Positions 15,179 to 62,023 of a stretch of 64,000 bases of DNA are shown here, piece after piece (position 1 is the first letter of the stretch; every line of letters begins with the position of its first letter). A program made the translations under genes and the position numbers. The stretch comes from Clostridia bacterium (GTDB lineage: Bacteria > Bacillota > Clostridia > TANB77 > RGIG9151). The notes under the pieces are model-generated. The model saw only the letters and a list, made by a program, of their open reading frames with translations, had not been told where the DNA came from and searched no databases. Location: positions 4,481 through 68,480 of the forward strand of contig JAFSUW010000003.1 in the NCBI GenBank assembly GCA_017450465.1, given 5' to 3'.

Positions 15179-15474
15179 TACATTTAGTAATTCTACATAA
15201 TTTACAGTTTAATAACAAAAAACAAATAAAGCGAATTCATCACGTAGTTTGTTAGCATTTTTCCAAAACAGCTTATGGTCGTCAAAAAAGCCGGATGCTT
15301 TTTTGAGTGAGTATGCGACATGGATGTCGTCATACGAGCGACCACCATTTGTTTTGGCAAAAAATGCAACAAATGAAGTGTTAGAATGAAGCGATTTGTT
15401 TTTTGTTATTTGTAAATTTCTTATACTTGCCAAACTTTATAAATAATAGTATCATTTACATTGAGGTGAAATAC

Positions 15475-17938: not shown

Positions 17939-19408
17939 ATGAAAATATACAATACTATGACAAAGACAAAAGAAGATTTCATACCAATTGATGGTAATAA
18001 GGTAAAGATGTATGCATGTGGAATTACGGTATATGATGATTGTCATATGGGGCACGCAAAACAAGCCATTGTATATGACGTGATTTCCCAATATTTAAGA
18101 TTTAGGGGTTACGATGTTACATATGTTAGAAATTATACTGATGTTGACGACAAAATTATAAATCGTGCAAACGAACTTGGAATCAATGCACTAGACTATT
18201 CTGCTGAAAGAATTCATGAGGCAGAAAGAGTTTTGGGTGAACTTCGTGTTTGCCCTGCAGATATTAATCCAAAAGCATCAGAAAATATAGATAATATTAT
18301 AAATTTTGTACAAGATCTTATTGAAAAAGGTCATGCATATGCTACAGAAAAGGGCGATGTATATTTCTCAGTAAAAAGTTTCCCTGGTTATGGCAAACTT
18401 TCAAAAAGAAATACAGATGAATTATTAAATGGTGTGAGAAAAGACGTAGAAGAAGGAAAAACTGATCCGCTAGATTTTGCTCTTTGGAAATCTGCTAAAG
18501 AAGGAGAAATATCTTGGGATTCTCCTTGGGGCAAGGGACGTCCTGGTTGGCATATTGAATGTTCTACAATGATAAGGGCTAACCTTGGTGAGTCTATAGA
18601 TATTCATGGTGGCGGAAAAGATTTAGTATTCCCCCATCACGAAAACGAAATAGCGCAAAGTGAATCACTTACTGGCAAACCACTTGCAAAGTATTGGAGT
18701 CATAGTGGACTTATTACAATAAATGGGCAAAAAATGAGTAAATCTTTAGGTAATTCAAAAACAATTAAAGAGATGCTAGAAGTGTATAATCCTGAAGTTA
18801 TTCGTTATACTATGCTTTCTAAACACTATTCTACTGATACTGATTTGAGTGATAAAGAATTTGCATTATCTGAAAAACAAATGTTTTACTTCTACAATAC
18901 ATTAAATGATATAAATAACTTTGTAAAAGCAAACTTAACTGATGAGAACGCCAAGATTGTCGAAGAGGAAAATTATAATGCCATTGAAACTAACTTTATT
19001 GAAGCAATGGATGACGATTTTAATACATCATTAGCTCTTGCTGGATTGTTTACCGCTTGCAAAAATGCGAATAATTTAATGAAAGATAAAAAATATGACG
19101 CAAATACTCGTGCAGTAACATTAAAGAAAATGGCAGAAAAAATTGTTACGTTATATTCTGTAATAGGGCTATTAAAGGAAGAACCAACCGTATTTATTGA
19201 AAATCTTAAATTAAAACACTTAAAACTAAAAAATATGACTGTTGAAGAAGTAGAAAACCTTATTAATAAACGTAGTGATGCAAAAGCAAATAAAGATTAT
19301 GCTGTAGCAGATGCAATTAGAAATGAATTAGATACTAAAGGTATTATTCTTTTCGACAGCAAAGATGGTACAACATGGGGCATCAATGAATTATATAATA
19401 TAGGGTAA
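17939..19408 (+). CDS. cysS: cysteine--tRNA ligase
   Basis: HIGH motif (CHMGHA) and KMSKS (QKMSKSLGN). 489 aa. AAGGAGGGA RBS. Confidence 0.9.
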   Translation: MKIYNTMTKTKEDFIPIDGNKVKMYACGITVYDDCHMGHAKQAIVYDVISQYLRFRGYDVTYVRNYTDVDDKIINRANELGINALDYSAERIHEAERVLGELRVCPADINPKASENIDNIINFVQDLIEKGHAYATEKGDVYFSVKSFPGYGKLSKRNTDELLNGVRKDVEEGKTDPLDFALWKSAKEGEISWDSPWGKGRPGWHIECSTMIRANLGESIDIHGGGKDLVFPHHENEIAQSESLTGKPLAKYWSHSGLITINGQKMSKSLGNSKTIKEMLEVYNPEVIRYTMLSKHYSTDTDLSDKEFALSEKQMFYFYNTLNDINNFVKANLTDENAKIVEEENYNAIETNFIEAMDDDFNTSLALAGLFTACKNANNLMKDKKYDANTRAVTLKKMAEKIVTLYSVIGLLKEEPTVFIENLKLKHLKLKNMTVEEVENLINKRSDAKANKDYAVADAIRNELDTKGIILFDSKDGTTWGINELYNIG

Positions 19409-19417
19409 TTTTATGGG

Positions 19418-19446
19418 TGAACTTTGGTTCGCCCATTTTTTATATA
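19418..19446 (+). terminator. intrinsic terminator GGGTGAAC-tttg-GTTCGCCC plus ATTTTTTAT
   Basis: Same hairpin family as 17811. Confidence 0.65.
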
Positions 19447-19457
19447 GGAGGAGTATT

Positions 19458-19958
19458 ATGATAAGACCTGCTGATATTTCGGATGCAAAAGCTATAGCGC
19501 ATATTAGAGTAGATGGTTGGAAAACTACATATAAAGGAATGATGCCGGATAGCTTTTTATCAAAACTAAACTATGAGGAAGAAGAAGACCGAGATAAAAA
19601 AAGACTACTTGGAAATGATAATAATTTTACAAGCAAAATAGTTGTTTATGAAGAAAATAACGAAATACTAGGTTTTGCTTTTTATGGTAATGCAATAGAT
19701 AGTAGTTATGATGGAGAAATACTTGCGTTATATGTAAAACCAGATATGAAAAGACATGGTATAGGCAATAAATTAGTAAATTACATAAAACAAGAATTAA
19801 AAAATAATGGAAAAACCAATATGATTATTTGGTGTTTAAAAGAAAACATAAATTCAATTAAGTTTTATGAAAAAATGGGCGGGAAGCCACTAGATACACG
19901 TAATATAAATATTGCTGGTACTAATTTGACTGAAGTGGGATTAGTATATGAATTATAA
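19458..19958 (+). CDS. GNAT family N-acetyltransferase
   Basis: Acetyl-CoA binding motif KRHGIGNKLV (Q/RxxGxG/A). About 166 aa. GGAGGAG RBS before ATG 19458. Confidence 0.7.
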   Translation: MIRPADISDAKAIAHIRVDGWKTTYKGMMPDSFLSKLNYEEEEDRDKKRLLGNDNNFTSKIVVYEENNEILGFAFYGNAIDSSYDGEILALYVKPDMKRHGIGNKLVNYIKQELKNNGKTNMIIWCLKENINSIKFYEKMGGKPLDTRNINIAGTNLTEVGLVYEL

Positions 19959-20074
19959 ATAGACCGAAATAAATCGATCTATTTTTTCAATACAAACTTT
20001 AACTTATTTTACTTGTAATTTTTATGTAGAATGATATAATATTTTTGTAAAAGTATAAACTCTGGAGGAATATT

Positions 20075-23000
20075 ATGTCGGATAAAAAATTATATGAACT
20101 AACTGAGCAGCAACAAGGAATGTGGTATACTGAAAAACTTTATCCTAATACAAGCATGGGTTCAATTACTGGTATAATAAAAATAAAGGATACTATTAAT
20201 TTTGAAGTTTTAGAAAAAGCTATAAATAAATTTGTTGAAAAAAATGATGCAATGCGATTAATAATTACCGAAGAAAATGGTAATCCAATGCAATATGTAT
20301 CTGACTTTAAGTATTCAAAACTAAAATTTATAGATTTTTCTAAAAAAGATACCAAAGATTTATATGAATGGGAAGAAAACGAAGCTAAAAAAGCATTTGA
20401 TATACATAATTCTTTGCTTTTTGAATTTGTTATGTTCAAAGCAGCAAATGAGGGTGGTTTTGTAATTAGAGTACACCATATTATTTCTGATGCTTGGAGT
20501 TTGGTAAATCTTTCTAGTAAAGTTATCGAAAATTACATTAAAATGAAGAACAATGCATACGCTGAAGAAAATAATGCACCTTCATATATTGATTTCATAA
20601 ATAGTGAAAAAGAATATTTAGCTTCAAAACGTTTTAATTTAGATAAGAAGTACTGGGAAGATAAACTTAGTATTTTTGAAGATATAACAACACTAAAAGA
20701 AAATAAATCTGACAATACAAGTATAAAATCAAAAAGAAAAACTTTTGTATTACCTGAAAAACTTTCAAATAAGATCCGGGAATTTTGCAAAGAGAAAAAG
20801 GTTTCAGAGTATACTTTATTTATTGCGGCAATTTCTATGTACATAAATAGAACGAGAAATAAAGAAGATATGTTCTTTGGAACATCTTTATTAAACCGTT
20901 CTACAAAGGCCGAAAAAGAAACAATGGGTATGTTTGTAAATGCTGCTGTTCCTGTACACGTTAAAGTAAATGGCGAAAGCAATTTCGATGATTTTATTGA
21001 ATCTATTTCTAAAGAACTACTATCTACACTCAAACATCAAAAATATCCATACTCTGAAATGACTAAGTTTACTAAGAAAACTAAACTTTTCGATATCGTA
21101 TTAAACTACCAAAATGCTAAACTTAATCACAAATTAGATTTAGATTACTTAACTCGTTGGGTTGTTAATGATTCACAAATAGAATCTTTAATAGTAAATG
21201 TAAACGATAGAGATGGCGAAGGTAATCTAATTATCGACTATGATTATTTAACTGATTTATTTTATGCTAAAGAAGTTGATTTCATACATCAACATATTAT
21301 AAATATCTTGTGGCATGCACTTGATAACTGCAAGAAACCAATTGCAGATTTAGAAATGCTTTCTGAAGTTGAAAAAGACAAGATTTTGCATAAGTTTAAT
21401 GATGACAACGCAACATATGACCACAATATAACTATTCATGAAATATTTGAAAAGCAAGTAGAAAAATATCCAAATAATATTGCCTTAACATTTGATGGCA
21501 AAAACATGACATATAAAGAGTTAAATGAAAAAGCAAATGCTCTTGCACATATTTTGCGTAAAAACGGCTTAAAACGTGAAGATATAGTTTGTATGATACT
21601 AGATAAATCGTTTAATACAATTATATCTATTTTGGCTATCTTAAAATCAGGCGGAGCATATTTACCAATTTTACCTGATTACCCAACTGAAAGAATAGAT
21701 TTTATGCTTGCAGATAGTGGCTCCAAGTTTTTAATCACACAAAAAGAATATAAAGGCAAATATAAATTTGATGGACTGATTTTATGTGCTGATGATGAAA
21801 AAATTTATAACGAAGATAAAACAAATTTACCAAATGTAAATAAGCCAGAAGATTTGCTTTACATAATTTATACTTCTGGTTCAACAGGTAAGCCAAAAGG
21901 CGTTATGCTTGAGCATAGAAATGTTGTACGTCTTTTATATAATAGTGCGTTCCAATTTGATTTTAATGACAAAGATGTTTGGACTATGTTCCATTCATAT
22001 TGCTTTGATTTCTCGGTTTGGGAAATGTACGGTGCATTATTATATGGTGGGCGCCTTGTTATAATACCTAAAGAAATCTCTCGTGATGTCCAAGAATTCT
22101 TAAAGGTACTTCGTAAAGAAAAAGTTACAATATTAAATCAAACACCAAACGTATTTTATAATTTAGTAAATGAAGAAGTTAAAGAAAAAAATGCTGATTT
22201 AGTTATTAGATATATTGTTTTTGGTGGAGAGGCATTAAAACCTACAATGCTAAAGCCATTTAGGGATAAATATCCAAAAACAAAACTAATCAATATGTAT
22301 GGAATAACTGAAACAACAGTTCACGTTACTTTTAAGGATTTATCCGATGAAGATATCGCAAGTAGTAAGAGTAATATAGGTAAACCAATACCTACACTTA
22401 AAACTTACATCATGGACAAAAACTTAAAACTTTTACCTGTAAATACTCCAGGTGAAATTTGCGTAACTGGTGCTGGTGTTGCAAGAGGTTACTTAAATAG
22501 ACCTGAACTAACAAAAGAAAAATTTGTTGTAAACCCTTATAATCCTACTGAGCGTATGTATCGTTCTGGAGATCTCGGAAGATACTATGCTGAAGGTGAT
22601 ATCGAATATTTAGGAAGAATAGACAATCAAGTAAAAATTCGTGGTTTTAGGGTTGAACTTGATGAAATTGAACGTACTATTCTTACTTTTGATGGTGCAA
22701 AAAATGCACTCGTAATGGCTAAAAAGGATAACAATGAAAAGAATTTCCTTTGTGCATATGTTGTAAAAACTAAAGATATTGATGTACAAAAATTAAGAGA
22801 ACATTTAGCAAAAACTTTACCAGACTATATGGTACCGGCTTATTATGTATTTTTAGATGCGTTTCCGCTTACTGTAAATGGTAAAATAGATAGAAAAAAT
22901 CTACCTGAACCAGAAGCAGTTGACAATACTATATATATTGCACCTGTAACTGAAACCGAGAAAATACTTGCAAGCACTTTTGCTGAGGTACTAAATAAAG

Positions 23001-24367
23001 AAAAAGTCGGAACAGATGATAATTTGTTCCACATTGGCGGCGATTCACTAACTGTTATTCAATTATTAACACGGCTATATAAATATAATTTCAAACTCAC
23101 GGCAGCAGATTTTTATGAATATCCAACAATAAAATTACTAGCAAGCAAAATTGATGGCGAAGTAAAGAAAGAAAAGAAAGTATCTAGTAAAGAAGAAATT
23201 TTAAAACCATTGCCATACAAAGAAGTTAGTAAAATAGAACCTCAAAAATTATCTGGGAATGTGCTTTTAACTGGTGCCACTGGATTTTTAGGCTCACACA
23301 TTTTAAAAGAATTACTTGATACTACAGATTCTACTATGTACTGTTTAATTCGTTCGAATAAAGAAAAATCTTCACTTGAAAGATTAAAAGATACAATGAA
23401 GTTCTATTTTAAGGACAAAATTAATTATAACAGAATTAAAGTATTAGATGGCGATATAACTGAAGACTATTTAGGATTATCCGAAAAAGAATATGACGAA
23501 CTTGGCAAAGATATAAGGACAATAATACATACTGCAGCACTCGTTAAATACTATGGAGATTATAGTGACTTCGAAAGAATTAACGTTGGTGGTGTAGCAA
23601 ATGTTATAAAACTTGCTAAAAAATATGACATCAAATTAAATCATATTTCTACAATTGGTATTTCTGGAAGTTACCTTGTTGACTGCGACAAAAAGGGCTT
23701 AATTCTTACTGAAAAAGACTTGTTTGTTGGTCAAAATTATAAAGAAAACGTATATGTACATAGTAAATTTGAAGCTGAAAAACTAATTATTCAAGAAGAA
23801 AAGAATGGACTTAAGGCAACCGTATTTAGAATGGGTAACTTGACTGGTCGAAATAGCGATGGTCAGTTCCAGAAAAATATGAATGATAATGCATTTAATA
23901 ATATTATCAAAACTGTAGTATTACTAAAAACAGTGCCTGAAAGTTTAATGGATACTGATGTTGAATTTACACCTGTAGATTTGGCAGCAAAATCATTATT
24001 AAAAATTGCTGCTACTAAAGAATCTACTAATAGAATATTCCATATAACAAACTTCAAAGAAATTAAGTTTAATGTTGTAATGGAAATGCTAAAAAAGATG
24101 TCACTAAATTTAACAGTTCTTTCAAATGATGAATTTAAGAATTTTGTTACAAAAGTTTCTGAAAATAACGACAAGAATAAATACTTAGTAGGTATAATTC
24201 CAGACATGAGTAACTCAAAAGATTTGACTTATGATGTCCCTGTAAAAGTGCATTGTGAAATAACTGAAAGCTTCTTAAAACTTTTAGGATTTGAATGGCC
24301 TGATATTGACTACACATACGTAGAAAAAGTAATTAAACACTTACAAGATAGACATTTCTTTGAATAA
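20075..24367 (+). CDS. single-module non-ribosomal peptide synthetase, C-A-T-R (condensation, adenylation, thiolation, terminal thioester reductase)
   Basis: C3 HHIISDAWS. A-domain cores LKSGGAYLPI, YTSGSTGKPKGV, FDFS, NMYGITETT, GEICVTGAGVARGYL, YRSGDLGRY, GRIDNQVKIRGFRVELDEIE, NGKIDR. PCP site GGDSL. R domain GATGFLGSHIL plus YVHSK. Confidence 0.85.
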   Translation: MSDKKLYELTEQQQGMWYTEKLYPNTSMGSITGIIKIKDTINFEVLEKAINKFVEKNDAMRLIITEENGNPMQYVSDFKYSKLKFIDFSKKDTKDLYEWEENEAKKAFDIHNSLLFEFVMFKAANEGGFVIRVHHIISDAWSLVNLSSKVIENYIKMKNNAYAEENNAPSYIDFINSEKEYLASKRFNLDKKYWEDKLSIFEDITTLKENKSDNTSIKSKRKTFVLPEKLSNKIREFCKEKKVSEYTLFIAAISMYINRTRNKEDMFFGTSLLNRSTKAEKETMGMFVNAAVPVHVKVNGESNFDDFIESISKELLSTLKHQKYPYSEMTKFTKKTKLFDIVLNYQNAKLNHKLDLDYLTRWVVNDSQIESLIVNVNDRDGEGNLIIDYDYLTDLFYAKEVDFIHQHIINILWHALDNCKKPIADLEMLSEVEKDKILHKFNDDNATYDHNITIHEIFEKQVEKYPNNIALTFDGKNMTYKELNEKANALAHILRKNGLKREDIVCMILDKSFNTIISILAILKSGGAYLPILPDYPTERIDFMLADSGSKFLITQKEYKGKYKFDGLILCADDEKIYNEDKTNLPNVNKPEDLLYIIYTSGSTGKPKGVMLEHRNVVRLLYNSAFQFDFNDKDVWTMFHSYCFDFSVWEMYGALLYGGRLVIIPKEISRDVQEFLKVLRKEKVTILNQTPNVFYNLVNEEVKEKNADLVIRYIVFGGEALKPTMLKPFRDKYPKTKLINMYGITETTVHVTFKDLSDEDIASSKSNIGKPIPTLKTYIMDKNLKLLPVNTPGEICVTGAGVARGYLNRPELTKEKFVVNPYNPTERMYRSGDLGRYYAEGDIEYLGRIDNQVKIRGFRVELDEIERTILTFDGAKNALVMAKKDNNEKNFLCAYVVKTKDIDVQKLREHLAKTLPDYMVPAYYVFLDAFPLTVNGKIDRKNLPEPEAVDNTIYIAPVTETEKILASTFAEVLNKEKVGTDDNLFHIGGDSLTVIQLLTRLYKYNFKLTAADFYEYPTIKLLASKIDGEVKKEKKVSSKEEILKPLPYKEVSKIEPQKLSGNVLLTGATGFLGSHILKELLDTTDSTMYCLIRSNKEKSSLERLKDTMKFYFKDKINYNRIKVLDGDITEDYLGLSEKEYDELGKDIRTIIHTAALVKYYGDYSDFERINVGGVANVIKLAKKYDIKLNHISTIGISGSYLVDCDKKGLILTEKDLFVGQNYKENVYVHSKFEAEKLIIQEEKNGLKATVFRMGNLTGRNSDGQFQKNMNDNAFNNIIKTVVLLKTVPESLMDTDVEFTPVDLAAKSLLKIAATKESTNRIFHITNFKEIKFNVVMEMLKKMSLNLTVLSNDEFKNFVTKVSENNDKNKYLVGIIPDMSNSKDLTYDVPVKVHCEITESFLKLLGFEWPDIDYTYVEKVIKHLQDRHFFE

Positions 24368-24395
24368 ATTATATTGAAAGGATGCGTAAATACAT

Positions 24396-26369
24396 ATGAA
24401 AAAACACAATTATTTAGCTAAAATAATTATGGTGTATAACATTATATTTATTGTTCTTGGTGTAGTATTCTACTTTGTATCACCAGAAATATTAAACTTC
24501 CCACCATATTCAATAAATAACGAATTTGAACGTTCTATGGATTCTGGTCTTAATTTTTACCAACAGTATCTTATAGGAATGCTTGCCCTAATGTTTATTG
24601 GTGACTTATTTGTTTACTTTAGTTTGCGTGGTATTGGTAAATATGCACAAGCAAATCCTGAAGAATTAGAAAAAATAAAAAGAAAATGTTTTACAATTCC
24701 TTATAGATTATATGTTATTCAAACATTGTTACCATTTATTATAGTAACTATATTACTTTACTTAACTGAAACAAAGCCAATTTTAATACTTAAAACAGTT
24801 GCATTAATATTCACATTCTCGACTTTAGTATCAGTAATATCTTATTTGTATTCAAAAAAAGTATTGAAACATTTATTGTTCTCGTTAAATAATTCAGAGG
24901 CATTCAAAAATAAATTACACTTTAATTTTAGAGCAAGAATTTTATTACAATTTTTACCACTTATAGTCGTAGCAATATTATTCCCATCAGTTGCTGGTTA
25001 TTCTTCACTAAACCGTGAACGTGGTGAACTTATTTTCGAAGAATATCAATATTTGTTAAATGATAAATTACAAAACGAATATAAATCACTTAGTGAGTTG
25101 ATGTTAGAATTAAAAGAAATTCCAATGAGAAATGAGCAAGATAGTATCTTCATTGTAGATATAAATAGAAAAGTTCATTATCCTGCTGATGAAGAATTAA
25201 GTGAATTCTTTATTAACTATGTATTCCAAGTATCAGACAAATTAGATGGTCACGTCTATGACTATTGGGGATCAGACACCGAAGGTATTGTTATAAAGAA
25301 GATATTTATAGATGGAATGGAATATTATGCGGGTGTTATTTATCCAGCATATTCATATTCTGGCTTAAAATTCTTACTTGTTAGTGTAATAGCAATTTTA
25401 ACTGGTTGTATTTTGTTTTTACTATATTTTTCAAAAGATATTGCAACAGATATTTCTAATGTGTCAGAAATGTTGGCACTATTATCTACACAAGCCGAAA
25501 TTGATTATGATAAAAAGATACCAGTTACATCAAACGATGAAATAGGAGACCTGATAGTCTCATTCAATAAAATACTCGACCTTGAAAAACACAACATAGC
25601 GACTATATCGCGTAACCAAGAAATAATGGTCGAACAAGAACGTTTGTCGTCACTTGGTCAATTAATTGGTGGTATTGCGCACAACCTAAAAACTCCTATC
25701 ATGTCGATAGCAGGAGCAGTAGAAGGGCTTACAGATTTAATTAAAGAGTATGATGAATCAGTTGAAGATAAATCAGTAACACCACAAGATCATCATGAAA
25801 TTGCGCACGACATGCAAGAGTGGGTTGATAAAATAAGACCATACTTAAGTTATATGACTGAAGTTATTGATACAGTTAAAGGTCAGGCCGTTTCAATGAA
25901 TGCAACAACTATGACAAGCTTTAGTGCAAAAGAACTTATGTCTAGAACGCAGATTTTACTTCGTGATGAATTAAAACGTAGACATTGTACATTAAACTTG
26001 AAGTTTGAAGTCGATGAAAACAGTAATATAGCTGGAGAAATAAGTGCTATAGTTCAAGTCATTGATAACTTAATAATTAACGCTATGGACGCTTATAAAG
26101 GCGAACCTGGTACAATTGATATATTAGTCCATGAAGATGCCAAGAAGATATATATCGACGTTAAAGACTATGCTGGAGGAATTCCAAAACACGTTCAAGA
26201 ACGTTTGTTTAAAGAGATGGTAACGTCAAAAGGTAAAAATGGTACTGGTCTTGGATTATATATGTCATATTCAACTATTAAAGGCAAATTTAATGGTGAT
26301 ATGCGTTACGAAACAAAAGAAGGAGAAGGTACAACATTCTTCATTGAATTAAATAAATATAAAGGATAA
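24396..26369 (+). CDS. polytopic membrane sensor histidine kinase (orphan; no response regulator nearby)
   Basis: At least six N-terminal TM helices. H-box GGIAHNLKTP, N-box NLIINAMDA, G1 DYAGGIP, G2 GTGLGL. Starts 28 nt after the NRPS stop. Confidence 0.8.
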   Translation: MKKHNYLAKIIMVYNIIFIVLGVVFYFVSPEILNFPPYSINNEFERSMDSGLNFYQQYLIGMLALMFIGDLFVYFSLRGIGKYAQANPEELEKIKRKCFTIPYRLYVIQTLLPFIIVTILLYLTETKPILILKTVALIFTFSTLVSVISYLYSKKVLKHLLFSLNNSEAFKNKLHFNFRARILLQFLPLIVVAILFPSVAGYSSLNRERGELIFEEYQYLLNDKLQNEYKSLSELMLELKEIPMRNEQDSIFIVDINRKVHYPADEELSEFFINYVFQVSDKLDGHVYDYWGSDTEGIVIKKIFIDGMEYYAGVIYPAYSYSGLKFLLVSVIAILTGCILFLLYFSKDIATDISNVSEMLALLSTQAEIDYDKKIPVTSNDEIGDLIVSFNKILDLEKHNIATISRNQEIMVEQERLSSLGQLIGGIAHNLKTPIMSIAGAVEGLTDLIKEYDESVEDKSVTPQDHHEIAHDMQEWVDKIRPYLSYMTEVIDTVKGQAVSMNATTMTSFSAKELMSRTQILLRDELKRRHCTLNLKFEVDENSNIAGEISAIVQVIDNLIINAMDAYKGEPGTIDILVHEDAKKIYIDVKDYAGGIPKHVQERLFKEMVTSKGKNGTGLGLYMSYSTIKGKFNGDMRYETKEGEGTTFFIELNKYKG

Positions 26370-26392
26370 AAATCCAAATTGCGCAAAATGAA

Positions 26393-26420
26393 AAGGGGAG
26401 AACAGAAGTTCTCTCCTTTT
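26393..26420. terminator. bidirectional intrinsic terminator AGGGGAGAAC-agaa-GTTCTCTCCTTTTT
   Basis: Sits between the convergent HK and recombinase genes. Confidence 0.65.
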
Positions 26421-27397
26421 TAATCATCTTTTTCTTCTTGTTCAAAATCAGCAAGAGGATTTTTATTTACTGCATCTTTTAATTGTTCTTTATTAGTATG
26501 CGTATAAATTTCTGTAGTTGCGACGCTTTCATGACCAAGAATTTCCTGCAAAGACCTTATATCAACATTACCATACTGATACATCAAAGTGGCAGCGGTA
26601 TGACGAAGTTTATGGGGAGTTATTTTGTCAGTATCAAGACCGGCCTCAGCAAGGTATTTTTTGACTATATATTGAACGGCACGAGGACTGATACGCTTTT
26701 TTCGTTCACTTAAGAATAATGCATTTCTATCTTTAACACCTTCGCGTGGACGGACGCGCATATATTCGTTTAGGGCGGTTTTTGAGGCATGGTTAAGGTA
26801 AACGGTCCTCTCTTTATTGCCCTTGCCTATAACGGTCAATTTGTCGTCCTTGATTTGGTTAATATTTATTGAAATTAGCTCACTAAGCCGCAATCCGCAG
26901 TTTAAGAATAGGGTAATAATAGCATAGTCACGTTCCTTATTATCGCCATCAATGGCATTAAGTAGCTGTTTACTCTCATCAACGTTTAAGTATTTAGGTA
27001 TACGTTTGCCAAGTTTCGGCGATTCAAGCTCTTTAGCAGGGTTTTGATCGAGTATTTTGGCTTTAACAGTAAGATAATTAAACAGTGAACGTATAGATGC
27101 AACTTTACGAGCCCTTGAAACAACTTTGTTGGATCTATCTAACTCTAAATAATTCATGTACGCATAAAGGTCGCTTAAATCGATTTTTTTCATAAATTCG
27201 ATATCTATGTCATAAACTTCAATAGACTCGAAATTTGAGGAAACAGGAACGAGTCGAAAATGAAGTTTCAAAAACCTTAAAAAATTCCTGAGGTCATAAT
27301 GATATTCACGAATAGTATTAGATGATTTGCCTTTAATAGTACTCATATAACTTAAGAAATCTTGTACGAATGCTGGAACGTCTGTATAATCGGTCAT
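26420..27397 (-). CDS. XerC/XerD-family tyrosine site-specific recombinase
   Basis: C-terminal catalytic region HKLRHTAATLMYQYG...LGHESVATTEIYTH (R-H-R-Y signature). N-terminal SAM-like domain. 325 aa. Confidence 0.8.
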   Translation of the reverse strand: MTDYTDVPAFVQDFLSYMSTIKGKSSNTIREYHYDLRNFLRFLKLHFRLVPVSSNFESIEVYDIDIEFMKKIDLSDLYAYMNYLELDRSNKVVSRARKVASIRSLFNYLTVKAKILDQNPAKELESPKLGKRIPKYLNVDESKQLLNAIDGDNKERDYAIITLFLNCGLRLSELISININQIKDDKLTVIGKGNKERTVYLNHASKTALNEYMRVRPREGVKDRNALFLSERKKRISPRAVQYIVKKYLAEAGLDTDKITPHKLRHTAATLMYQYGNVDIRSLQEILGHESVATTEIYTHTNKEQLKDAVNKNPLADFEQEEKDD

Positions 27398-27530: not shown

Positions 27531-27959
27531 ATGCAAAAAATAAATTTTAAAATAATTTTTATATTTTCCTTACTTATAATTATCGGCTTTTGTATAGTTT
27601 TTTATTATATTGAACTTGCAAATACTATAATTATAACTAAGGATAATTATATAGAAATTTTGCGTAATTGTCACGATAACATCGATGATTTTGTTGGCAA
27701 AAAAATTGTTGTTTCAGGTTATGTCTACTTGCAAGACAATTTTAGTTTTAATCATTTTGTTATTGCCAAAAATTTAGTTGTAATGCCTGGAGGTGAACCA
27801 TATGTTGTAGGTTTTTTATGTGAAAATTTGACTGACTACTCCTTCTACTCTAACGATACCATAAGAATTAAAGGAAAAATAGTTAAAGGAAACTTTAACG
27901 GTATTGATTACCCTATTATACAGTTTAAAAATTTTGAATTTGTGCCATATAAAACATGA
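27531..27959 (+). CDS. small membrane-anchored hypothetical protein
   Basis: N-terminal TM (IIFIFSLLIIIGFCIVFYYI) then an approximately 110-aa soluble domain. Confidence 0.4.
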   Translation: MQKINFKIIFIFSLLIIIGFCIVFYYIELANTIIITKDNYIEILRNCHDNIDDFVGKKIVVSGYVYLQDNFSFNHFVIAKNLVVMPGGEPYVVGFLCENLTDYSFYSNDTIRIKGKIVKGNFNGIDYPIIQFKNFEFVPYKT

Positions 27960-28607: not shown

Positions 28608-29759
28608 CTACTCTTCTACTTCTTCTGCTTCTTTTACCTCTTCTACTTCAAATATATCTTTAATCATACCTCTCGTATAAATACCGCTTAGAATACTCTT
28701 TAATATAATAAGCACAATTGGTCCAACGATAAGACCAAATACGCCAATTAATTGTACACCAGTATACATCGCAATTAATGTAAGTAATGGATAAATTCCA
28801 ATCTGACTTCCTACTATCTTTGGTTCTAATAACTGACGCATAACTGTTACAAACAAGTACATGATGATTAAATAAAATGCCATTTGATAATTACCTGTTA
28901 TTAAACATACCAAAGCCCATGGTATTAAAACCGTTCCTGTTCCTAGTATTGGCAATGCATCAATGATTGCAATAACTATTGCTAAAATTAATGCATATTC
29001 AATTTTATATAATGTAAAGAATATGAATAATTCAAAACACGTGATAGACATCATTATAAGTTCTGCTTTTACATATCCGCCAAGTGCTGCAAATAAATCA
29101 TTTATAACACTTGATAATTTGTCTAACCATTTCTTAGGCACATGATTTTCAAGTGATTCTCTAATATATTTATTATCTGAACTTATAAAGAATGTTGCTA
29201 AAAATGTAATAATTATATAAACAAGTACTTGTGGTAATGAAACAACAAAGTTATATATTCCCGTAACAAGTATATTTAAGAAATTAGAAAACGCAGTTAA
29301 AATTGTGCTGATTGCACTTGAAAACGAATTTTCTATAGTATCTATTACATCTTGCGATAAATCAAGACCTTTATAGAAAAACGTAAATCTGCTAATTAAG
29401 TCCATAATTGTGTTATATGCTTTTGGTACTAAATGCGATGATGATTGTGATAACGAAACAATTTCTCGTATTAGTGATGAGAAGAATAAATATCCGATAC
29501 CACCAATTATTGTAATAAATAAAATTATACAAAGTATAACTGAAATTGCTTTAGGAAGCTTAAATTTCTTTACCAAAAATTCACTAGGTCTCTTTATTAA
29601 TTTATAAATTATGTAAGCAATTAAAAATGGCATATAGAATATGGCAAGTTTAAATGCTAAATATACTCCTACAACGAATAATACTAAATATAAAAGCATC
29701 ATCAATATTTTTTTATACGACAACTTTAATTTGTTTTCCACGTCATTCACCTCGTACAC
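28608..29759 (-). CDS. AI-2E family (UPF0118/PerM-like) membrane transporter
   Basis: 383 aa, about eight TM helices, acidic C-terminal tail EEVKEAEEVEE. Terminator hairpin GGGCGATTATTACTCGCCC downstream. Confidence 0.7.
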   Translation of the reverse strand: MYEVNDVENKLKLSYKKILMMLLYLVLFVVGVYLAFKLAIFYMPFLIAYIIYKLIKRPSEFLVKKFKLPKAISVILCIILFITIIGGIGYLFFSSLIREIVSLSQSSSHLVPKAYNTIMDLISRFTFFYKGLDLSQDVIDTIENSFSSAISTILTAFSNFLNILVTGIYNFVVSLPQVLVYIIITFLATFFISSDNKYIRESLENHVPKKWLDKLSSVINDLFAALGGYVKAELIMMSITCFELFIFFTLYKIEYALILAIVIAIIDALPILGTGTVLIPWALVCLITGNYQMAFYLIIMYLFVTVMRQLLEPKIVGSQIGIYPLLTLIAMYTGVQLIGVFGLIVGPIVLIILKSILSGIYTRGMIKDIFEVEEVKEAEEVEE

Positions 29760-57627: not shown

Positions 57628-59688
57628 TTACACATCATAAATCTTGGTTATTGGTATTATATTTAAGTCATTTCTTATTTTTAGCAAGTTTTCTTTTATA
57701 TCATCAAATTCATCAATTATTGTGACTACCACAGTTTTTATTCTTGGATATTTTAATATGTCTTCGGGATTAATAACGTCTACATTCTTTAACTTTGGCA
57801 TTGTAGAATGCAAATCAATAAATGCTCCTACTCTTTCAATGAAGCTATCATCAAAGAAAATTATTTTTGAAACTGTACCTACTCCGTAAATAAAAACCTT
57901 ATCTTCATTTTCTAATATTGGTAAATCATTTACCTTCCCACAAAGCCATTTTACCAAACTATAATGCTGCCCTTGAAGCTTGTCCGTTACTTTATCATTT
58001 ATAGTCGTATTATATAACCAACAATAGTATTTTTCCATTTTATCATAATACTCTTTTGCTTCATCAATACGTCCCATTTTGTATAAGTATGTAATAATCA
58101 TATAAAAGGCACGAGTTTTATTATTAGACATATCAGAAACTTCTTTTACATAGTCCCTGCTAAGTGTTATTTCAAGATATTTTTTTAGCTCCTCCACCAA
58201 TATATTTTTATCCTCAAAAGTATCATATGCTACAAATCCCCTAAATAAATGATATGCACCTATATCTTTCTTTTCAAAATTTCGTATATCATCAAAACGT
58301 CTTAAAGCATATAACGCATTTAAGTAGATACCTGCGTCAACATCATTTGCCATTAATGCATCTTTATTTTCCGCAATACACTCATCCCTATATACTCTTA
58401 TATCTCGTATATATTCTTTCATTTTTTCATCAGATATTTCTTTGTTTTCTTGCATATATTTAATTTTGGCAACAATTTTATCTACATTTAGTTTTGCCTC
58501 TATATTATAATCAATAAGTATAAATACATTATAAACAAACTGATTTATAAATCTTTGCCTTATTACTTCATCCCAAGTAGCTTCATTATCTACTTTTATC
58601 TTTTCTTTATAATCTTTGTATAAACAGTCAACATACTTTGGAAATAAACCTTTTTTATAAAAGTTTTCGACTAAGTACTCTGTAACTTCAGTTATCTTAT
58701 CTGCAACATTTTCTTTTTCAGCTAGTAAATAATGAAAATATTCATCACTACACTTTACTCCGTCTGGCAATATTTTTGCTACATCTTTATAATTTATTAG
58801 TGCACCAGAGCCCTCCATATGCGTACGGAGTTTATATGTTTTGTTTAGTCTTAAATCATAATTGTCCTCATCTTTAATGCCCTCTAATATAACAAGTCCT
58901 TTGTCACTTGCATATGCGCCAACAAATGCTGTTGTGTACATGCATATTACTGTATGCGATGATTCAATAAGTTCTTGTAAATCTTTATGTTCCGTAAGCA
59001 TCGTTAAATTTTTAGGCAAGTTATTATTAGTTTCATTTTTTAATACATCAAATAAATGTAATCCATTTTTATGTGTAAATATTTTATCTGTTGGTAAAAA
59101 TCTTGGCTTTATAACAAGTTCATAATCAGGAAATTTTTCGCAAATATTTAATAATGTTCTTGCAAGTTCCCTTTTACCTTCAGGGCCAAATGGGCGATGT
59201 CCACTATCTATAAATAAAAATCTTTTTAATTCTTTTGCATCTTTCTTTATATTATCGTACTTTGGCTCGCCGATGCCTATTTTGTGATTTGTAAAATATT
59301 CATCAAAATCTGACACCAAAGTTGGCAGTGACGGAGCAAAACAAAAATCTCCACGCCATTGTATCGTTTTATCTATTAAATATGACTGTGTAAAAATTGG
59401 CTTATGTGCCGTCATTACAATAGTATCAATTAAATAATATGCTGCAACAGTTGATGTTACTATTACATCTACTTCATCTATGTCTTTTTGTGTCAGCATA
59501 CTTAGTGGTTTCATATCTATTTTCTCATCGAAAAAGCGCAGTACACTTTTATCAAAAAAGACAGCAAACAATTTGACTGTATGCCCGTTTCTTATATACG
59601 CATCAGCCATTTTAGATAAAGATATATTAGCTGCATCCTTTTCTGAAATCATTAATATCTTCATAACTTGCCCCCTGTTATTCGTCAA
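57628..59688 (-). CDS. large putative glycopolymer transferase (possibly TagF-like glycerophosphotransferase), Rossmann-like C-terminus
   Basis: 686 aa. C-terminal VFIYGVGTVSKII block is shared with the two paralogs upstream. No confident family assignment. Confidence 0.3.
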   Translation of the reverse strand: MTNNRGQVMKILMISEKDAANISLSKMADAYIRNGHTVKLFAVFFDKSVLRFFDEKIDMKPLSMLTQKDIDEVDVIVTSTVAAYYLIDTIVMTAHKPIFTQSYLIDKTIQWRGDFCFAPSLPTLVSDFDEYFTNHKIGIGEPKYDNIKKDAKELKRFLFIDSGHRPFGPEGKRELARTLLNICEKFPDYELVIKPRFLPTDKIFTHKNGLHLFDVLKNETNNNLPKNLTMLTEHKDLQELIESSHTVICMYTTAFVGAYASDKGLVILEGIKDEDNYDLRLNKTYKLRTHMEGSGALINYKDVAKILPDGVKCSDEYFHYLLAEKENVADKITEVTEYLVENFYKKGLFPKYVDCLYKDYKEKIKVDNEATWDEVIRQRFINQFVYNVFILIDYNIEAKLNVDKIVAKIKYMQENKEISDEKMKEYIRDIRVYRDECIAENKDALMANDVDAGIYLNALYALRRFDDIRNFEKKDIGAYHLFRGFVAYDTFEDKNILVEELKKYLEITLSRDYVKEVSDMSNNKTRAFYMIITYLYKMGRIDEAKEYYDKMEKYYCWLYNTTINDKVTDKLQGQHYSLVKWLCGKVNDLPILENEDKVFIYGVGTVSKIIFFDDSFIERVGAFIDLHSTMPKLKNVDVINPEDILKYPRIKTVVVTIIDEFDDIKENLLKIRNDLNIIPITKIYDV

Positions 59689-62020
59689 AGAAAGTTATAA
59701 ACTTAAAATCTTTTTTTATATCACACATTTGATTATATATGCTATCTCTTAAATCTTTTCTAGCTATAGTACAAAAATATATGTTACTATCAAATTTATG
59801 TCCCATCCCATATATCTTCTTACCATAAATAGATAAACCATGCTTAAAAGCATTATTATCTATAATACCTTCTACTAAATCTAGTTTCCCTAAAGATTTC
59901 AAAATACAAATTAAAGTTTTAGTATTACTTCCCGCTCCAATAAGAACAAATTTGTTATCATTAATCTTTTCAAGTATGCGTTTTGTCAAAATAACAACCG
60001 AATAGAAATAATGATTATGAAATATATTTGATACATTTTCATAATGAACAGTAGGATTTTTAAGTACATCTAATGCTGCATACCACTCATTAATATCTGG
60101 ATTAAATTTATGCTTTAATTCAAGCATATCTGTGCCTTCACCTATAAGCATAGGGTTTAATATCGGCACAAAAACATTTGCACCAAAATTTTGATCAAAT
60201 ACTACATCTTTTAATAAATTTACTTCACTAAGTTCTGGATAACAAAACATTCTATTCATAATTCTACATACATCAATATTTGAATTATCCCAATTACTTA
60301 GCATAGGTTTCTTCTTTTTATACGCCAAATACACTTTTTGAAATTCAAGTATACCTTCTTGAATTTTATTCATAACATCGATTTGCCATTTTGGATATTT
60401 TATATCTAATGTAATTGGTACAACCTTATCTTTTTTTCGCTCATACCGTACTGTAGTTCCATCAAGTGAAAATAAAAACATTTCTATTAAATTTATATAT
60501 ACTTCACTTACTTCCCTTGAAAACGAACCATAGTTACCTATAAACCCTCTTATATCACAGCCACTTATTGTATTATTTGCAACGTACGGGTCTGAAAAGG
60601 CAAAAAGATTAATAACATTTCCTTCTTTTTTTGCCACTTTAAAAATCTTATGCATTGTGCTTGGAACACTTCCGCGCCAGCCAATATCTACAGTTATGGA
60701 TTTTTGATTAAGCCCCATCTGTTCAAAATAATCTATTATATTTTTTGAATGTCCAGCACTTTTATTTTTTATTGATTTTATAACATCTGCGCTTATAAAA
60801 TAATTGTACAATTCATAAAGGTAACCTGAATTAATTATTTGTTCTGAAGTATAGTCTAAAATTTCTGGATATTTTTCTTTAACTTCTTCTTCGAGATCTA
60901 AAATCTCAGCTATTTTTCTTAAGGTTAAATTTGGTGTTATTAACATATTTTTTATGTCGTCACGTGTTATATACTCAAGCGTAGAGGTTTGTAGTGATAA
61001 CCTCGACAAATAAAGTGGTTCTATCGAATAATTTAAGCCACGCGCACTTTGAACATTTTTGAGGAGCTTAGTTAAGAACATCCCCTCACGCATAATAGGC
61101 CTTATAACACTAATGTTATTTTCTTGTGCAATATCAAGCACCCATTCTGAAAACAAGGTGAAAAATGGACCTATAACCATTGCGCCCATATCAAAATATT
61201 CTCTATCTTTTTCATCTTCGTATGGATTATGGCTAGTTGCAAGAAGTCTTAATGGAAATAGCTGCTGACCTTGAAAACTGTATGCCATTTCTTCCATTCT
61301 AAGATATGGATACTTAAAACTAGATTCAGTAATTAGCGTATAATAAAAACTATCGATATTTAATGCATTTGCGGCCCCTATATCACCATATATATCTGAA
61401 CCAACATGGAATAATTCATTACTTTTTATATTTAGTTTATCAAAAACAATCTTAAAAAGCCCACCATTTCTTTTTAATGCATTATACTCACATGAAATAA
61501 ATATATCAGTAAAAAGATTAATGTCTATGTTATTAGCTTTTAGTATCGTTTCAATTTGACTTTTGCTTAAATATATATCTGCAATAAGTATTACTTTAAG
61601 TTTTAATTTTTCTTTTATATATTTTATCGTTTCGTAAATATCATCATTCAAAAAGCATACTTCTTTTTCGCATTCAACTTCTAAATTCATTAATTTATCA
61701 GCATTCTTTTTGTAAGCGCTAGGAAGCATTTTATAAATCTCTGGCAAAGTTATTTCTACTGCCTCAACATCTACATTTTTTTTATTTACTCTAGCGACTT
61801 TTTCAGCAATTATTCTAGAATTTTTCCAATCGTACTTATTTGTATACTTAGGAAATAATTCCGGATTCATATCATACATTTTTAAAAACACAAAAGACGG
61901 ATTTGCTGCCGCTCTTAATATTAATGTATTTATGAGTTCGAAACTTACCACTTTTATTTCTTTATTATTTTGTATTTTCTCTATTAAATCGCTTAACATA
62001 AAAATCCTCCGTGAATACAA
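59678..62020 (-). CDS. large (780 aa) HAD-like-domain protein of glycopolymer locus, paralog A
   Basis: HAD motif-IV-like FHVGSDIYGDIGAANA, degenerate motif I VVSFELINTLI. C-terminal KFVLIGAGSNTKT Rossmann-like block. Overlaps downstream gene by 11 nt. Confidence 0.4.
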   Translation of the reverse strand: MYSRRIFMLSDLIEKIQNNKEIKVVSFELINTLILRAAANPSFVFLKMYDMNPELFPKYTNKYDWKNSRIIAEKVARVNKKNVDVEAVEITLPEIYKMLPSAYKKNADKLMNLEVECEKEVCFLNDDIYETIKYIKEKLKLKVILIADIYLSKSQIETILKANNIDINLFTDIFISCEYNALKRNGGLFKIVFDKLNIKSNELFHVGSDIYGDIGAANALNIDSFYYTLITESSFKYPYLRMEEMAYSFQGQQLFPLRLLATSHNPYEDEKDREYFDMGAMVIGPFFTLFSEWVLDIAQENNISVIRPIMREGMFLTKLLKNVQSARGLNYSIEPLYLSRLSLQTSTLEYITRDDIKNMLITPNLTLRKIAEILDLEEEVKEKYPEILDYTSEQIINSGYLYELYNYFISADVIKSIKNKSAGHSKNIIDYFEQMGLNQKSITVDIGWRGSVPSTMHKIFKVAKKEGNVINLFAFSDPYVANNTISGCDIRGFIGNYGSFSREVSEVYINLIEMFLFSLDGTTVRYERKKDKVVPITLDIKYPKWQIDVMNKIQEGILEFQKVYLAYKKKKPMLSNWDNSNIDVCRIMNRMFCYPELSEVNLLKDVVFDQNFGANVFVPILNPMLIGEGTDMLELKHKFNPDINEWYAALDVLKNPTVHYENVSNIFHNHYFYSVVILTKRILEKINDNKFVLIGAGSNTKTLICILKSLGKLDLVEGIIDNNAFKHGLSIYGKKIYGMGHKFDSNIYFCTIARKDLRDSIYNQMCDIKKDFKFITFFDE

Positions 62021-62023
62021 AAA

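Follow-up and report, generated by a model that had tools for sequence, protein, structure and literature searches.

In the Rpf system of Xanthomonas, which produces and perceives diffusible signal factor (DSF), the synthase RpfF is accompanied by the fatty-acyl-CoA ligase RpfB, the polytopic kinase RpfC and RpfG, a regulator with a receiver (REC) and an HD-GYP domain that lowers cyclic di-GMP (c-di-GMP) (PMC8042644). The hypervariable region of agr spans the 3′ part of agrB, agrD and the 5′ part of agrC (PMC3673130), and comQXP pherotypes have the same hypervariable architecture, which reflects co-evolving signal and receptor, as in agr (PMC4408185). Here, we analyse a 64,000-nucleotide stretch of DNA from a Clostridia bacterium (assembly GCA_017450465.1, contig JAFSUW010000003.1, positions 4,481 to 68,480 of the forward strand; hereafter the window), in which the gene for a one-module nonribosomal peptide synthetase (NRPS) is followed by that for a polytopic sensor histidine kinase. 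We consider it rather likely that the NRPS makes a small-molecule signal of the autoinducer type and that the kinase is its receptor, in a cassette found widely among Clostridia. To our knowledge, peptide (agr-type) and AI-2 signalling are the only well-established forms of cell-to-cell signalling in strictly anaerobic Firmicutes.

Hundreds of Clostridia from gut, rumen and sediment have kept this NRPS-kinase pair, and the pairing is beyond chance. A one-genome-per-species scan with an alignment of the kinase family as query detected a kinase relative in at least 586 genomes, from which the best 80 loci were fetched and scored for NRPS adjacency by tblastn with separate NRPS domains. An NRPS lies beside the kinase in 78 of these 80 loci; in the other two, the sequence ends less than 600 bp upstream, so that every one of the 78 genomes that can be assessed shows the adjacency. 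The order is NRPS then kinase on the same strand in 74 loci, with gaps of mostly approximately 14 to 260 nt (1.9 kb in L063), and kinase then NRPS in 4. Looked up from the NRPS side, the kinase directly follows in 8 of 8 homologue contexts, which represent at least 6 unrelated neighbourhoods. Three single-module NRPS homologues (47% to 69% identical) are each directly followed by the kinase, in loci L001, L003 and L004, and their surroundings differ: L001 has HSP90 and acyl-CoA ligase genes on the upstream side, L003 lies between mutS2 (upstream) and bipA (downstream), and L004 has hyp genes downstream. Likewise, three kinase homologues (48% to 54% identity) each sit beside an NRPS of approximately 1,430 to 1,450 residues with the domain order condensation, adenylation, thiolation and reductase (C-A-T-R), one of them in reversed gene order. 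Five more distant contexts, including bimodular C-A-T-C-A-T-R enzymes and C-A-T-C-A-T-TE enzymes that end in a thioesterase (TE), have the kinase 2 to 45 nt after the NRPS, in most cases with a response regulator next, and in two of them a phosphopantetheinyl transferase (PPTase) gene precedes the NRPS; the three bimodular NRPSs that were checked all sit in an NRPS-kinase(-regulator) cassette. In L151 (5313–6014) and L152 (5114–5785) the PPTase gene, of the Sfp type (ACPS), is directly 5′ of a TE-terminated bimodular NRPS, overlapping it in L151, and the layout is a four-gene PPTase-NRPS-kinase-regulator unit. Absence of synteny in relatives was an outcome that, according to the initial annotation, would refute the proposed coupling of NRPS and kinase, and it was not observed: the 78 genomes and 8 NRPS contexts, together with the block co-variation described below, strongly support functional coupling on comparative genomic grounds.

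In pairwise comparisons of 70 loci, the identity of the N-terminal sensor half of the kinase correlates with that of the A (r = 0.85), R (r = 0.89) and C (r = 0.78) domains of the adjacent NRPS, versus r = 0.34 with the kinase's own transmitter. The raw correlation between sensor and A domain is confounded by phylogeny, and we relied instead on nucleotide breakpoints and on a comparison in which transmitter identity is kept constant. For the latter, we used the 130 locus pairs with transmitters at least 80% identical. Pairs sharing the same A-domain specificity code (n = 34; median transmitter identity 85%) have a median sensor identity of 79% (53% to 99%), whereas those with different codes (n = 96; median transmitter identity 83%) have a median of only 29% (23% to 87%; Mann-Whitney p = 5e-14; label permutation p ≤ 2e-4). 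The high sensor values in the different-code group are single-residue code variants.

At the nucleotide level, a hypervariable block consisting of the NRPS and the 5′ part of the kinase gene is observed in five pairs of related genomes, all of them from relatives of the window. L001 and L005 are 98.3% identical in DNA through the HSP90 and acyl-CoA ligase genes, the identity stopping exactly at the NRPS start; the NRPSs are 41% identical in amino acid sequence (Thr versus Ser code), and DNA identity resumes, at 87.9%, at approximately kinase codon 268. In L035 and L041, the upstream flanks are 90% identical, the NRPS and kinase codons 1 to 410 are essentially unalignable, and beyond codon 410 the identity is 96% for 4.5 kb through transmitter, regulator and further. 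L008 and L016 are mosaic, with 89% identity in the upstream flank and C domain, approximately 64% to 69% over A-T-R (approximately 42% in amino acids) and the first 100 kinase codons, and transmitters that are 100% identical in amino acid sequence; the pattern is the same in L021 and L028. At the same site in L003 and L148, amino acid identity is 93% for mutS2, 96% for the regulator and 87% for the transmitter, while the sensors are 44% identical and a one-module NRPS stands against a two-module one. Synthase and sensor together make up the unit that is swapped and kept. The Dehalobacter loci L024 and L025 (CP148031 and NZ_CP157399) have 92% DNA identity over their full 19 kb, with codes that differ at 4 of 10 positions and an external PDC-like loop at 60% amino acid identity versus 95% for the transmitter, which looks like in situ co-diversification rather than block replacement.

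These data bear directly on the possibility that the NRPS makes a protease-inhibiting aldehyde or other effector against competitors or the host, while the kinase and HD-GYP regulator sense a different cue (envelope or proteolytic stress, the host, nutrients) and the operon reflects co-expression only. Such a division of labour would leave unexplained both the joint replacement of the sensor half with A-T-R in five lineage pairs and the tracking of the A-domain code by sensor identity at fixed transmitter identity. It would agree with the cathepsin-inhibitory peptide aldehydes reported for related gut clusters (PMC12282076), with the capacity of PDC/Cache domains to bind many small metabolites, with the protease-related alpha-2-macroglobulin-like genes in the window, and with an HtrA-like protease gene near the cassette in 49 of 86 loci; the HtrA gene, however, is mostly 8 to 12 kb distant and oppositely oriented, and it occurs in company with Tex, ABC-F and CorA, which looks like clade synteny. 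Overall, we regard an effector with an independent sensor as unlikely.

A response regulator composed of a receiver, sometimes a DUF3369 domain, and HD-GYP follows the kinase co-directionally in 59 of 80 loci and lies upstream of it in 3 more; in 10 of the 18 loci without one, the sequence ends less than 1.6 kb downstream. The receiver aspartate region, the HD motif and HHExxDGxGYP are at least 90% conserved across 66 regulator copies, and from these motifs the regulator looks like an active c-di-GMP phosphodiesterase. An enzymatic rather than DNA-binding output argues against an ordinary cluster-situated transcription regulator. In L056 (2376–20502), the order is bimodular NRPS, kinase, regulator, second kinase and second, one-module NRPS, i.e., two pairs with one HD-GYP regulator, which suggests that a single regulator receives input from two signal channels. 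L022 has a second transmitter-like match downstream of the regulator.

The output likewise matters for a second alternative, in which the product is an antimicrobial or a reactive electrophile and the kinase adjusts the physiology or tolerance of the producer instead of counting cells. Lantibiotics, which are both antibiotics and autoinducers and are detected by NisK and SpaK, provide a precedent, aldehydes are reactive, and the synteny and co-variation evidence is the same as for signalling. Against this stand an output of c-di-GMP hydrolysis with no induction of a resistance operon, and a cassette in which no immunity, efflux or resistance gene is conserved, and we consider producer feedback or self-protection quite improbable; in practice, it differs from signalling only in the purpose of the signal.

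The window itself has no HD-GYP response regulator by tblastn over the whole 64 kb, and no REC domain among its open reading frames (ORFs) of at least 120 residues, nearly all of which were scanned. Its nearest relatives (L001, L005, L008 and L014 to L017) also have no adjacent regulator. The description of the kinase as an orphan in the initial annotation is therefore correct for this locus but not for the family, in most members of which the regulator adjoins. The transmitters of the relatives without a regulator are strongly constrained, as the complete identity between L008 and L016 illustrates, and the regulator is presumably encoded elsewhere in the source genome. Although orphan kinases of Clostridium species phosphorylate Spo0A directly, and the loci without a regulator would fit a sporulation-type kinase that feeds another pathway and sits beside an unrelated NRPS by accident, the NRPS adjacency in all assessable genomes and a transmitter conserved with HD-GYP-paired kinases, even with those of the 7TM type described below, make this very improbable.

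The putative synthase contains, in Pfam, Condensation (PF00668; residues 5–438; E 2e-84), AMP-binding (PF00501; 458–807), AMP-binding_C (PF13193; 864–937), PP-binding (PF00550; 965–1023) and NAD_binding_4 (PF07993; 1065–1307; E 6e-51) domains. Its A domain matches NCBIfam TIGR01733 (443 bits, cut-off 317), and its R domain matches the thioester reductase model TIGR01746 over residues 1062–1428 (225 bits, cut-off 213). The proposal of one complete C-A-T-R module ending in a thioester reductase of the short-chain dehydrogenase/reductase (SDR) type, which had been made from the letters, is thus upheld by the domain searches, and the motifs then quoted (HHIISDAWS, YTSGSTGKPKGV, FDFS, GGDSL, GATGFLGSHIL and YVHSK) are all present in the translation. 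HHIISDAWS contains HHxxxD, the A domain has the core motifs and the Lys517 equivalent, and GATGFLG and YVHSK represent the Rossmann GxxGxxG and the YxxxK. HHxxxD, the GGDSL serine, GxTGFLG and YxxxK are conserved across 72 NRPS homologues; the serine is kept in all 72, the second histidine of the C domain in 71 of the 71 that align there (L076 is cut), and the full HH in 67 of 72. According to structure-library matches, the R domain is homologous to solved NRPS, MxaA and AusA reductases. The protein aligns end to end with the MxcG model NF038078 (positions 5–1428 of 1442, same C-A-T-R order), but assignment to this myxochelin synthetase equivalog was rejected at 631.6 bits versus a cut-off of 2300; the two share an architecture without being orthologues. 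Many C-A-T-C-A-T-R proteins of 2,460 to 2,500 residues from gut metagenomes are 33% to 44% identical to the window NRPS.

Ten specificity residues were extracted from the 72 homologues by alignment to GrsA-PheA numbering; the numbering and code tables are those of Stachelhaus et al. 1999. The window A domain has the code DFWNVGMVHK, one conservative change away from DFWNIGMVHK, the canonical threonine code, and is read as specific for Thr. Thr codes (DFWNIGMVHK or DFWNVGMVHK) occur in 15 of the homologues, an Asn code (DLTKIGEVGK) in 13, a Ser code (DVWHFSLVDK) in 7 and Gly-like codes of the DILQ type in approximately 8, and the rest (DIFLIGLVYK, DSELTAEVCK, DVYYGGMVGK, DVAYLGGICK and DIFQMAGIFK) have no amino acid reading. 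The code thus varies between species, versus constant C histidine, T serine and R motifs. Conservation of these catalytic motifs shows that the C domain is under selection to act, and this implies that its donor is supplied in trans.

What this donor may be is indicated by the gene neighbourhood and by the C domain itself. In 27 of 86 loci, a fatty-acid-CoA ligase gene adjoins the NRPS, in one arrangement co-directional with a gap of 19 to 25 nt (L001 and L005) and in the other divergent (24 loci); the L001 ligase scores 511 bits against NCBIfam PRK06187 (cut-off 476). The window C domain is N-terminal, with no carrier upstream, and is 39% to 43% identical to the N-terminal C domains of bimodular relatives versus 20% to 23% to their internal ones. 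Its best solved matches are the elongation C domains of SrfA-C (8f7h) and BacC; 8f7h, considered as a surfactin starter domain, is in fact an engineered SrfA-C elongation domain (PMC11142918), and the C domain was thus not typed from structures. Ligase adjacency and likeness to N-terminal C domains point to a fatty acyl donor, and the predicted product, in which acyl donor and release form are deduced, is N-acyl-L-threoninal or N-acyl-L-threoninol; we cannot tell two-electron (aldehyde) from four-electron (alcohol) release from sequence alone.

The putative receptor has a HATPase_c domain (residues 550–653; 67.7 bits, cut-off 26.4) and a HisKA match (420–456) that at 24.0 bits falls below the cut-off of 26.9; His429 and the N- and G-box residues are invariant in 65 homologues, in keeping with a two-component histidine kinase. 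AlphaFold (AF2) models (pLDDT 83.5 for the full length; 89.9 with pTM 0.83 for residues 1–370) have five transmembrane (TM) helices at the N terminus, then a long helix that connects to an alpha/beta domain, and a sixth TM helix that runs into HAMP, while a Foldseek search with the full-length model matched kinase cores alone. The initial annotation was right in counting at least six TM helices; its conclusion that the protein has no periplasmic domain and is an intramembrane-sensing kinase does not hold, this class being ruled out by the folded extracytoplasmic PDC/Cache-like domain in the model. Basic residues are distributed as expected for an N-in topology, which puts the alpha/beta domain and a conserved loop (residues 33–53) outside the cell, and near-invariant sensor residues are mostly aromatic and located in the external loop and the PDC-like domain. 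The sensor module (residues 1–345) is private to this kinase family, with 215 representatives among 1.84 billion proteins, nearly all of them histidine kinases of approximately 620 to 700 residues or fragments. A second, unrelated sensor type (Pfam HisKA_7TM) is found on the same transmitter (56% identity over residues 399–652), both types sharing the H-box QERLxSLGQLIGGIAHNLKTPIMS, and HisKA_7TM-type kinases also occur beside NRPSs and an HD-GYP regulator. When metagenomes were scanned with the 7TM-type kinase, most matches were unrelated kinases, and only L094 to L097 were informative.

The NRPS and kinase genes look like one transcription unit, separate from the upstream GNAT acetyltransferase gene, because the spacer between them is unstructured (−0.3 kcal/mol by RNA folding, no better than shuffles) and hairpins follow the GNAT gene and the kinase gene (Table 1). 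As first described, the kinase begins 28 nt after the NRPS stop; the terminator scan found no terminator between the two, and the first follows the kinase, where it is bidirectional and common to the operon and the convergent XerC/D-like recombinase gene. The hairpin after the GNAT gene appears to mark the 5′ boundary of the unit. The promoter-like site beyond it has 10 of 12 consensus matches and an extended −10 TG in a consensus scan, and is a consensus match alone. The GNAT had been thought to acylate the product or to confer self-resistance. Nothing links it to the product; it is present in 0 of 86 related loci and is set apart by the hairpin and the separate promoter-like site, and we rejected it as a cassette member. 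The statement that no response regulator, transporter or PPTase lies nearby is borne out by the ORF scan for regulator and PPTase, not for transporters, given the AI-2E-family gene in Table 1. Overall, the window copy of the cassette is minimal and lies within a housekeeping region, beside a switch in GC skew.

We propose that the C domain would transfer an acyl group, probably from fatty acyl-CoA or acyl-ACP, to T-bound L-threonine chosen by the A domain, and that the R domain would release N-acyl-threoninal or N-acyl-threoninol reductively. The amphiphilic product would cross membranes unaided, without a dedicated exporter, which would explain why the cassette has no conserved transporter, and it would suit a sensor made of TM helices and an aromatic-rich membrane-proximal domain. 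The kinase would sense the product from outside or at the membrane surface, by way of TM1–5 and the PDC/Cache-like domain next to the membrane, and would phosphorylate the REC-HD-GYP regulator, thereby changing c-di-GMP hydrolysis; matched synthase/sensor pairs would differ by species and strain in the manner of pherotypes. We infer both the identity of the product as kinase ligand and the direction of the c-di-GMP change.

Several points weigh against this proposal. The 3′ end of the NRPS gene and the 5′ end of the kinase gene are contiguous, so that a single recombination event with one end in the conserved transmitter DNA could transfer both even if product and kinase were not ligand and receptor, and the presence of two unrelated sensors (6TM plus PDC, and HisKA_7TM) beside NRPSs fits but does not require product sensing. 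The cassette is known here from sequence, with product, ligand binding and phosphotransfer all predicted, and the substrate codes are readings against GrsA numbering and code tables. No acyl-CoA ligase, PPTase or HD-GYP response regulator was found in the 64-kb window (for the PPTase, in the same ORF scan as for REC), which leaves the local pathway incomplete, and no c-di-GMP or other riboswitch that would close an autoinduction loop was found 5′ of the NRPS in the window or in six related loci. Finally, relatives in the NRPS family are reported to make peptide aldehydes that inhibit host cathepsins (PMC12282076), which is another primary role. We put forward tentatively, and with slightly less than even confidence, a broader generalisation: the clostridial NRPS family, whether mono- or bimodular and R- or TE-terminated, and probably including the gut "peptide aldehyde" clusters that have been interpreted as inhibitors of host proteases, would consist primarily of autoinducer synthases for quorum sensing with strain- and species-specific pherotypes, with the downstream kinase as receptor and c-di-GMP hydrolysis by the REC-HD-GYP regulator as output, and would be a Gram-positive NRPS counterpart of DSF and acyl-homoserine lactone (AHL) signalling.

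Table 1. Features of the cassette and its surroundings, in window positions.
Feature	Position	Strand	Remarks
ORF, 256 aa	14305–15075		in the 14–16 kb high-GC stretch
TwoAYGGAY RNA (Rfam RF01731)	15240–15381	+	48.5 bits, gathering threshold 43
RecD2-like helicase gene		+	precedes cysS; + strand stretch 15.4–26.4 kb
cysS	17939–19408	+
Terminator-like hairpin after cysS	19413–19436	+
GNAT gene, 166 aa	19458–19958	+	ribosome-binding site (RBS) AGGAGG
AT-rich terminator-like hairpin and U-run after GNAT	19957–19987	+	−7.2 kcal/mol, z −3.8, then UUUUUU
Promoter-like site TTGTAA-16-(TG)TATAAT	20013–20040	+	35 nt 5′ of NRPS start codon
NRPS gene, 1430 aa, C-A-T-R	20075–24367	+
C domain	~20087–21388	+
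A domain	21446–22885	+
T domain	22967–23143	+
R domain	23258–24358	+
NRPS-kinase spacer, 28 nt	24368–24395	+	RBS-like AAAGGA, no hairpin
Sensor histidine kinase gene, 657 aa	24396–26369	+
TM1–5	24411–24998	+	residues 6–201
Extracytoplasmic PDC/Cache-like domain, ~115 aa	25008–25355	+	residues ~205–320
TM6 and HAMP	25356–25595	+	residues 321–400
DHp with His429, and CA domain	25596–26366	+	residues 401–657
Intrinsic terminator after kinase	26389–26422	+	15-bp stem and T-run; −20.2 kcal/mol, z −5.1
XerC/D-like tyrosine recombinase gene	26420–27397	−	convergent with the NRPS-kinase operon
DUF1980 C-terminal-domain protein	27531–27959	+
AI-2E-family transporter	28608–29759	−
Alpha-2-macroglobulin-like protein, 1584 aa	33311–38065	−	Big_5, MG2, A2M domains
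SLH-domain protein, 1107 aa	43178–46501	−
Alpha-2-macroglobulin-like protein, 1655 aa	46627–51594	−	Big_5, MG2, A2M domains
Three consecutive ORFs (686, 780, 657 aa)	57628–63997	−	no Pfam match at E ≤ 1e-5

Among the surrounding features, the sign of the GC skew changes at approximately 27–28 kb, from positive on the left to negative on the right, and gene orientation flips at the same place (+ left, − right), where the recombinase gene is located; the switch is probably the replication terminus, as converging forks would give. The AI-2E-family and DUF1980 genes lie beyond the recombinase gene, and neither is conserved beside the cassette. An HtrA-like gene (trypsin plus PDZ) is directly divergent from the NRPS in L149 (4498–5634) and L150 (4705–5835), directly downstream in L011 and L012, and 8 to 12 kb upstream in many loci. 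HtrA, Tex, ABC-F and CorA were rejected as cassette members, position, strand and housekeeping nature indicating clade synteny; a functional link of HtrA to an aldehyde product may exist. An alpha-2-macroglobulin-like gene is also found approximately 7 kb downstream of the cassette in L008 and L009, and may represent shared synteny only, yet is protease-related like the reported peptide-aldehyde activity. The 14–16 kb stretch has a GC content of 0.42 versus approximately 0.31 elsewhere in the window; its 256-residue ORF has no Pfam match, and the TwoAYGGAY RNA lies just 5′ of the RecD2-like helicase gene. The three consecutive ORFs near the right end of the window are followed by cytidylyltransferase, HMGL-like and epimerase genes, and are possibly part of a surface-polysaccharide or teichoic-acid locus.

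In the searchable full-text literature, we found no description of an NRPS-kinase-HD-GYP cassette or of its hypervariable structure; the kinase may be mentioned in the primary gut-NRPS paper (Cell 2017). Each component family is a known one, and Rpf, Cqs/Lqs and agr/com are precedents for the logic; the cassette looks like an undescribed cell-to-cell signalling system. If this is correct, strictly anaerobic Firmicutes would use a new chemical class of signal between cells, namely N-acyl amino aldehydes or alcohols and short peptides made by NRPSs, linked directly to c-di-GMP control of lifestyle, and the abundant, transcribed NRPS clusters of gut and rumen, whose ecological role is unsettled, would gain a native function. 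The cassette may thus reassign the native role of a prominent gut NRPS cluster family. Matched hypervariable synthase/sensor pairs are also potential orthogonal signal-receptor sets for engineering anaerobes.

Comparison with individual known systems places the cassette between several of them. The gut Clostridia NRPS family of 47 biosynthetic gene clusters is reported to make dipeptide aldehydes and pyrazinones, with host protease inhibition as the published role (PMC12282076). The bimodular metagenome proteins that match the window NRPS resemble this family and may belong to the published clusters, whereas the window NRPS has one module and is expected to yield an N-acyl amino aldehyde or alcohol, not a dipeptide aldehyde. 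MxcG and other C-A-T-R modules, and the AusA reductase, share the domain order as well as acylation of a carrier-bound amino acid and reductive release; unlike MxcG, the window NRPS has no aryl-carrier or siderophore gene with it in the window, a Thr instead of a Lys code, and a kinase as partner. CqsA/CqsS of Vibrio and LqsA/LqsS of Legionella resemble the cassette in having a dedicated small-molecule synthase beside a polytopic kinase. Their synthases are PLP-dependent acyl-CoA transferases and their signals alpha-hydroxyketones. In pyrazine signalling of Pseudomonas, PvfC (A-T-R) is an NRPS-like, reductase-terminated enzyme and the signals derive from amino aldehydes; we know of no dedicated adjacent kinase or C domain in Pvf.

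The cassette is most similar in logic to Rpf/DSF on the one hand and to agr and ComQXPA on the other. Like Rpf, it has a clustered synthase, a multi-TM kinase, a REC-HD-GYP output (in the 59 of 80 loci given above, though not at the window locus), often an adjacent fatty-acyl-CoA ligase (27 of 86 loci) and, as predicted here, a lipid-like signal that needs no exporter. The synthase, however, is an NRPS and not a crotonase; the kinase is a simple one (6TM plus PDC plus HAMP, or 7TM), with neither REC nor HPt in the Pfam scan of the window kinase, whereas RpfC is a hybrid with both; the cassette occurs in Gram-positive anaerobes, with a hypervariable synthase/sensor pair; and there is no sequence homology to the Rpf synthase or sensor, so that the cassette is analogous to Rpf and not a member of it. 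With agr of Staphylococcus and Clostridium and ComQXPA of Bacillus, it shares a polytopic kinase as receptor, here a putative one, and a hypervariable block over the signal gene(s) and the 5′ part of the sensor gene, between conserved flanks and with conserved transmitter and regulator, an organisation found in five pairs of relatives. The signals of agr and ComQXPA are ribosomal peptides and their regulators bind DNA (LytTR in AgrA, and ComA), whereas the cassette combines an NRPS with c-di-GMP turnover.

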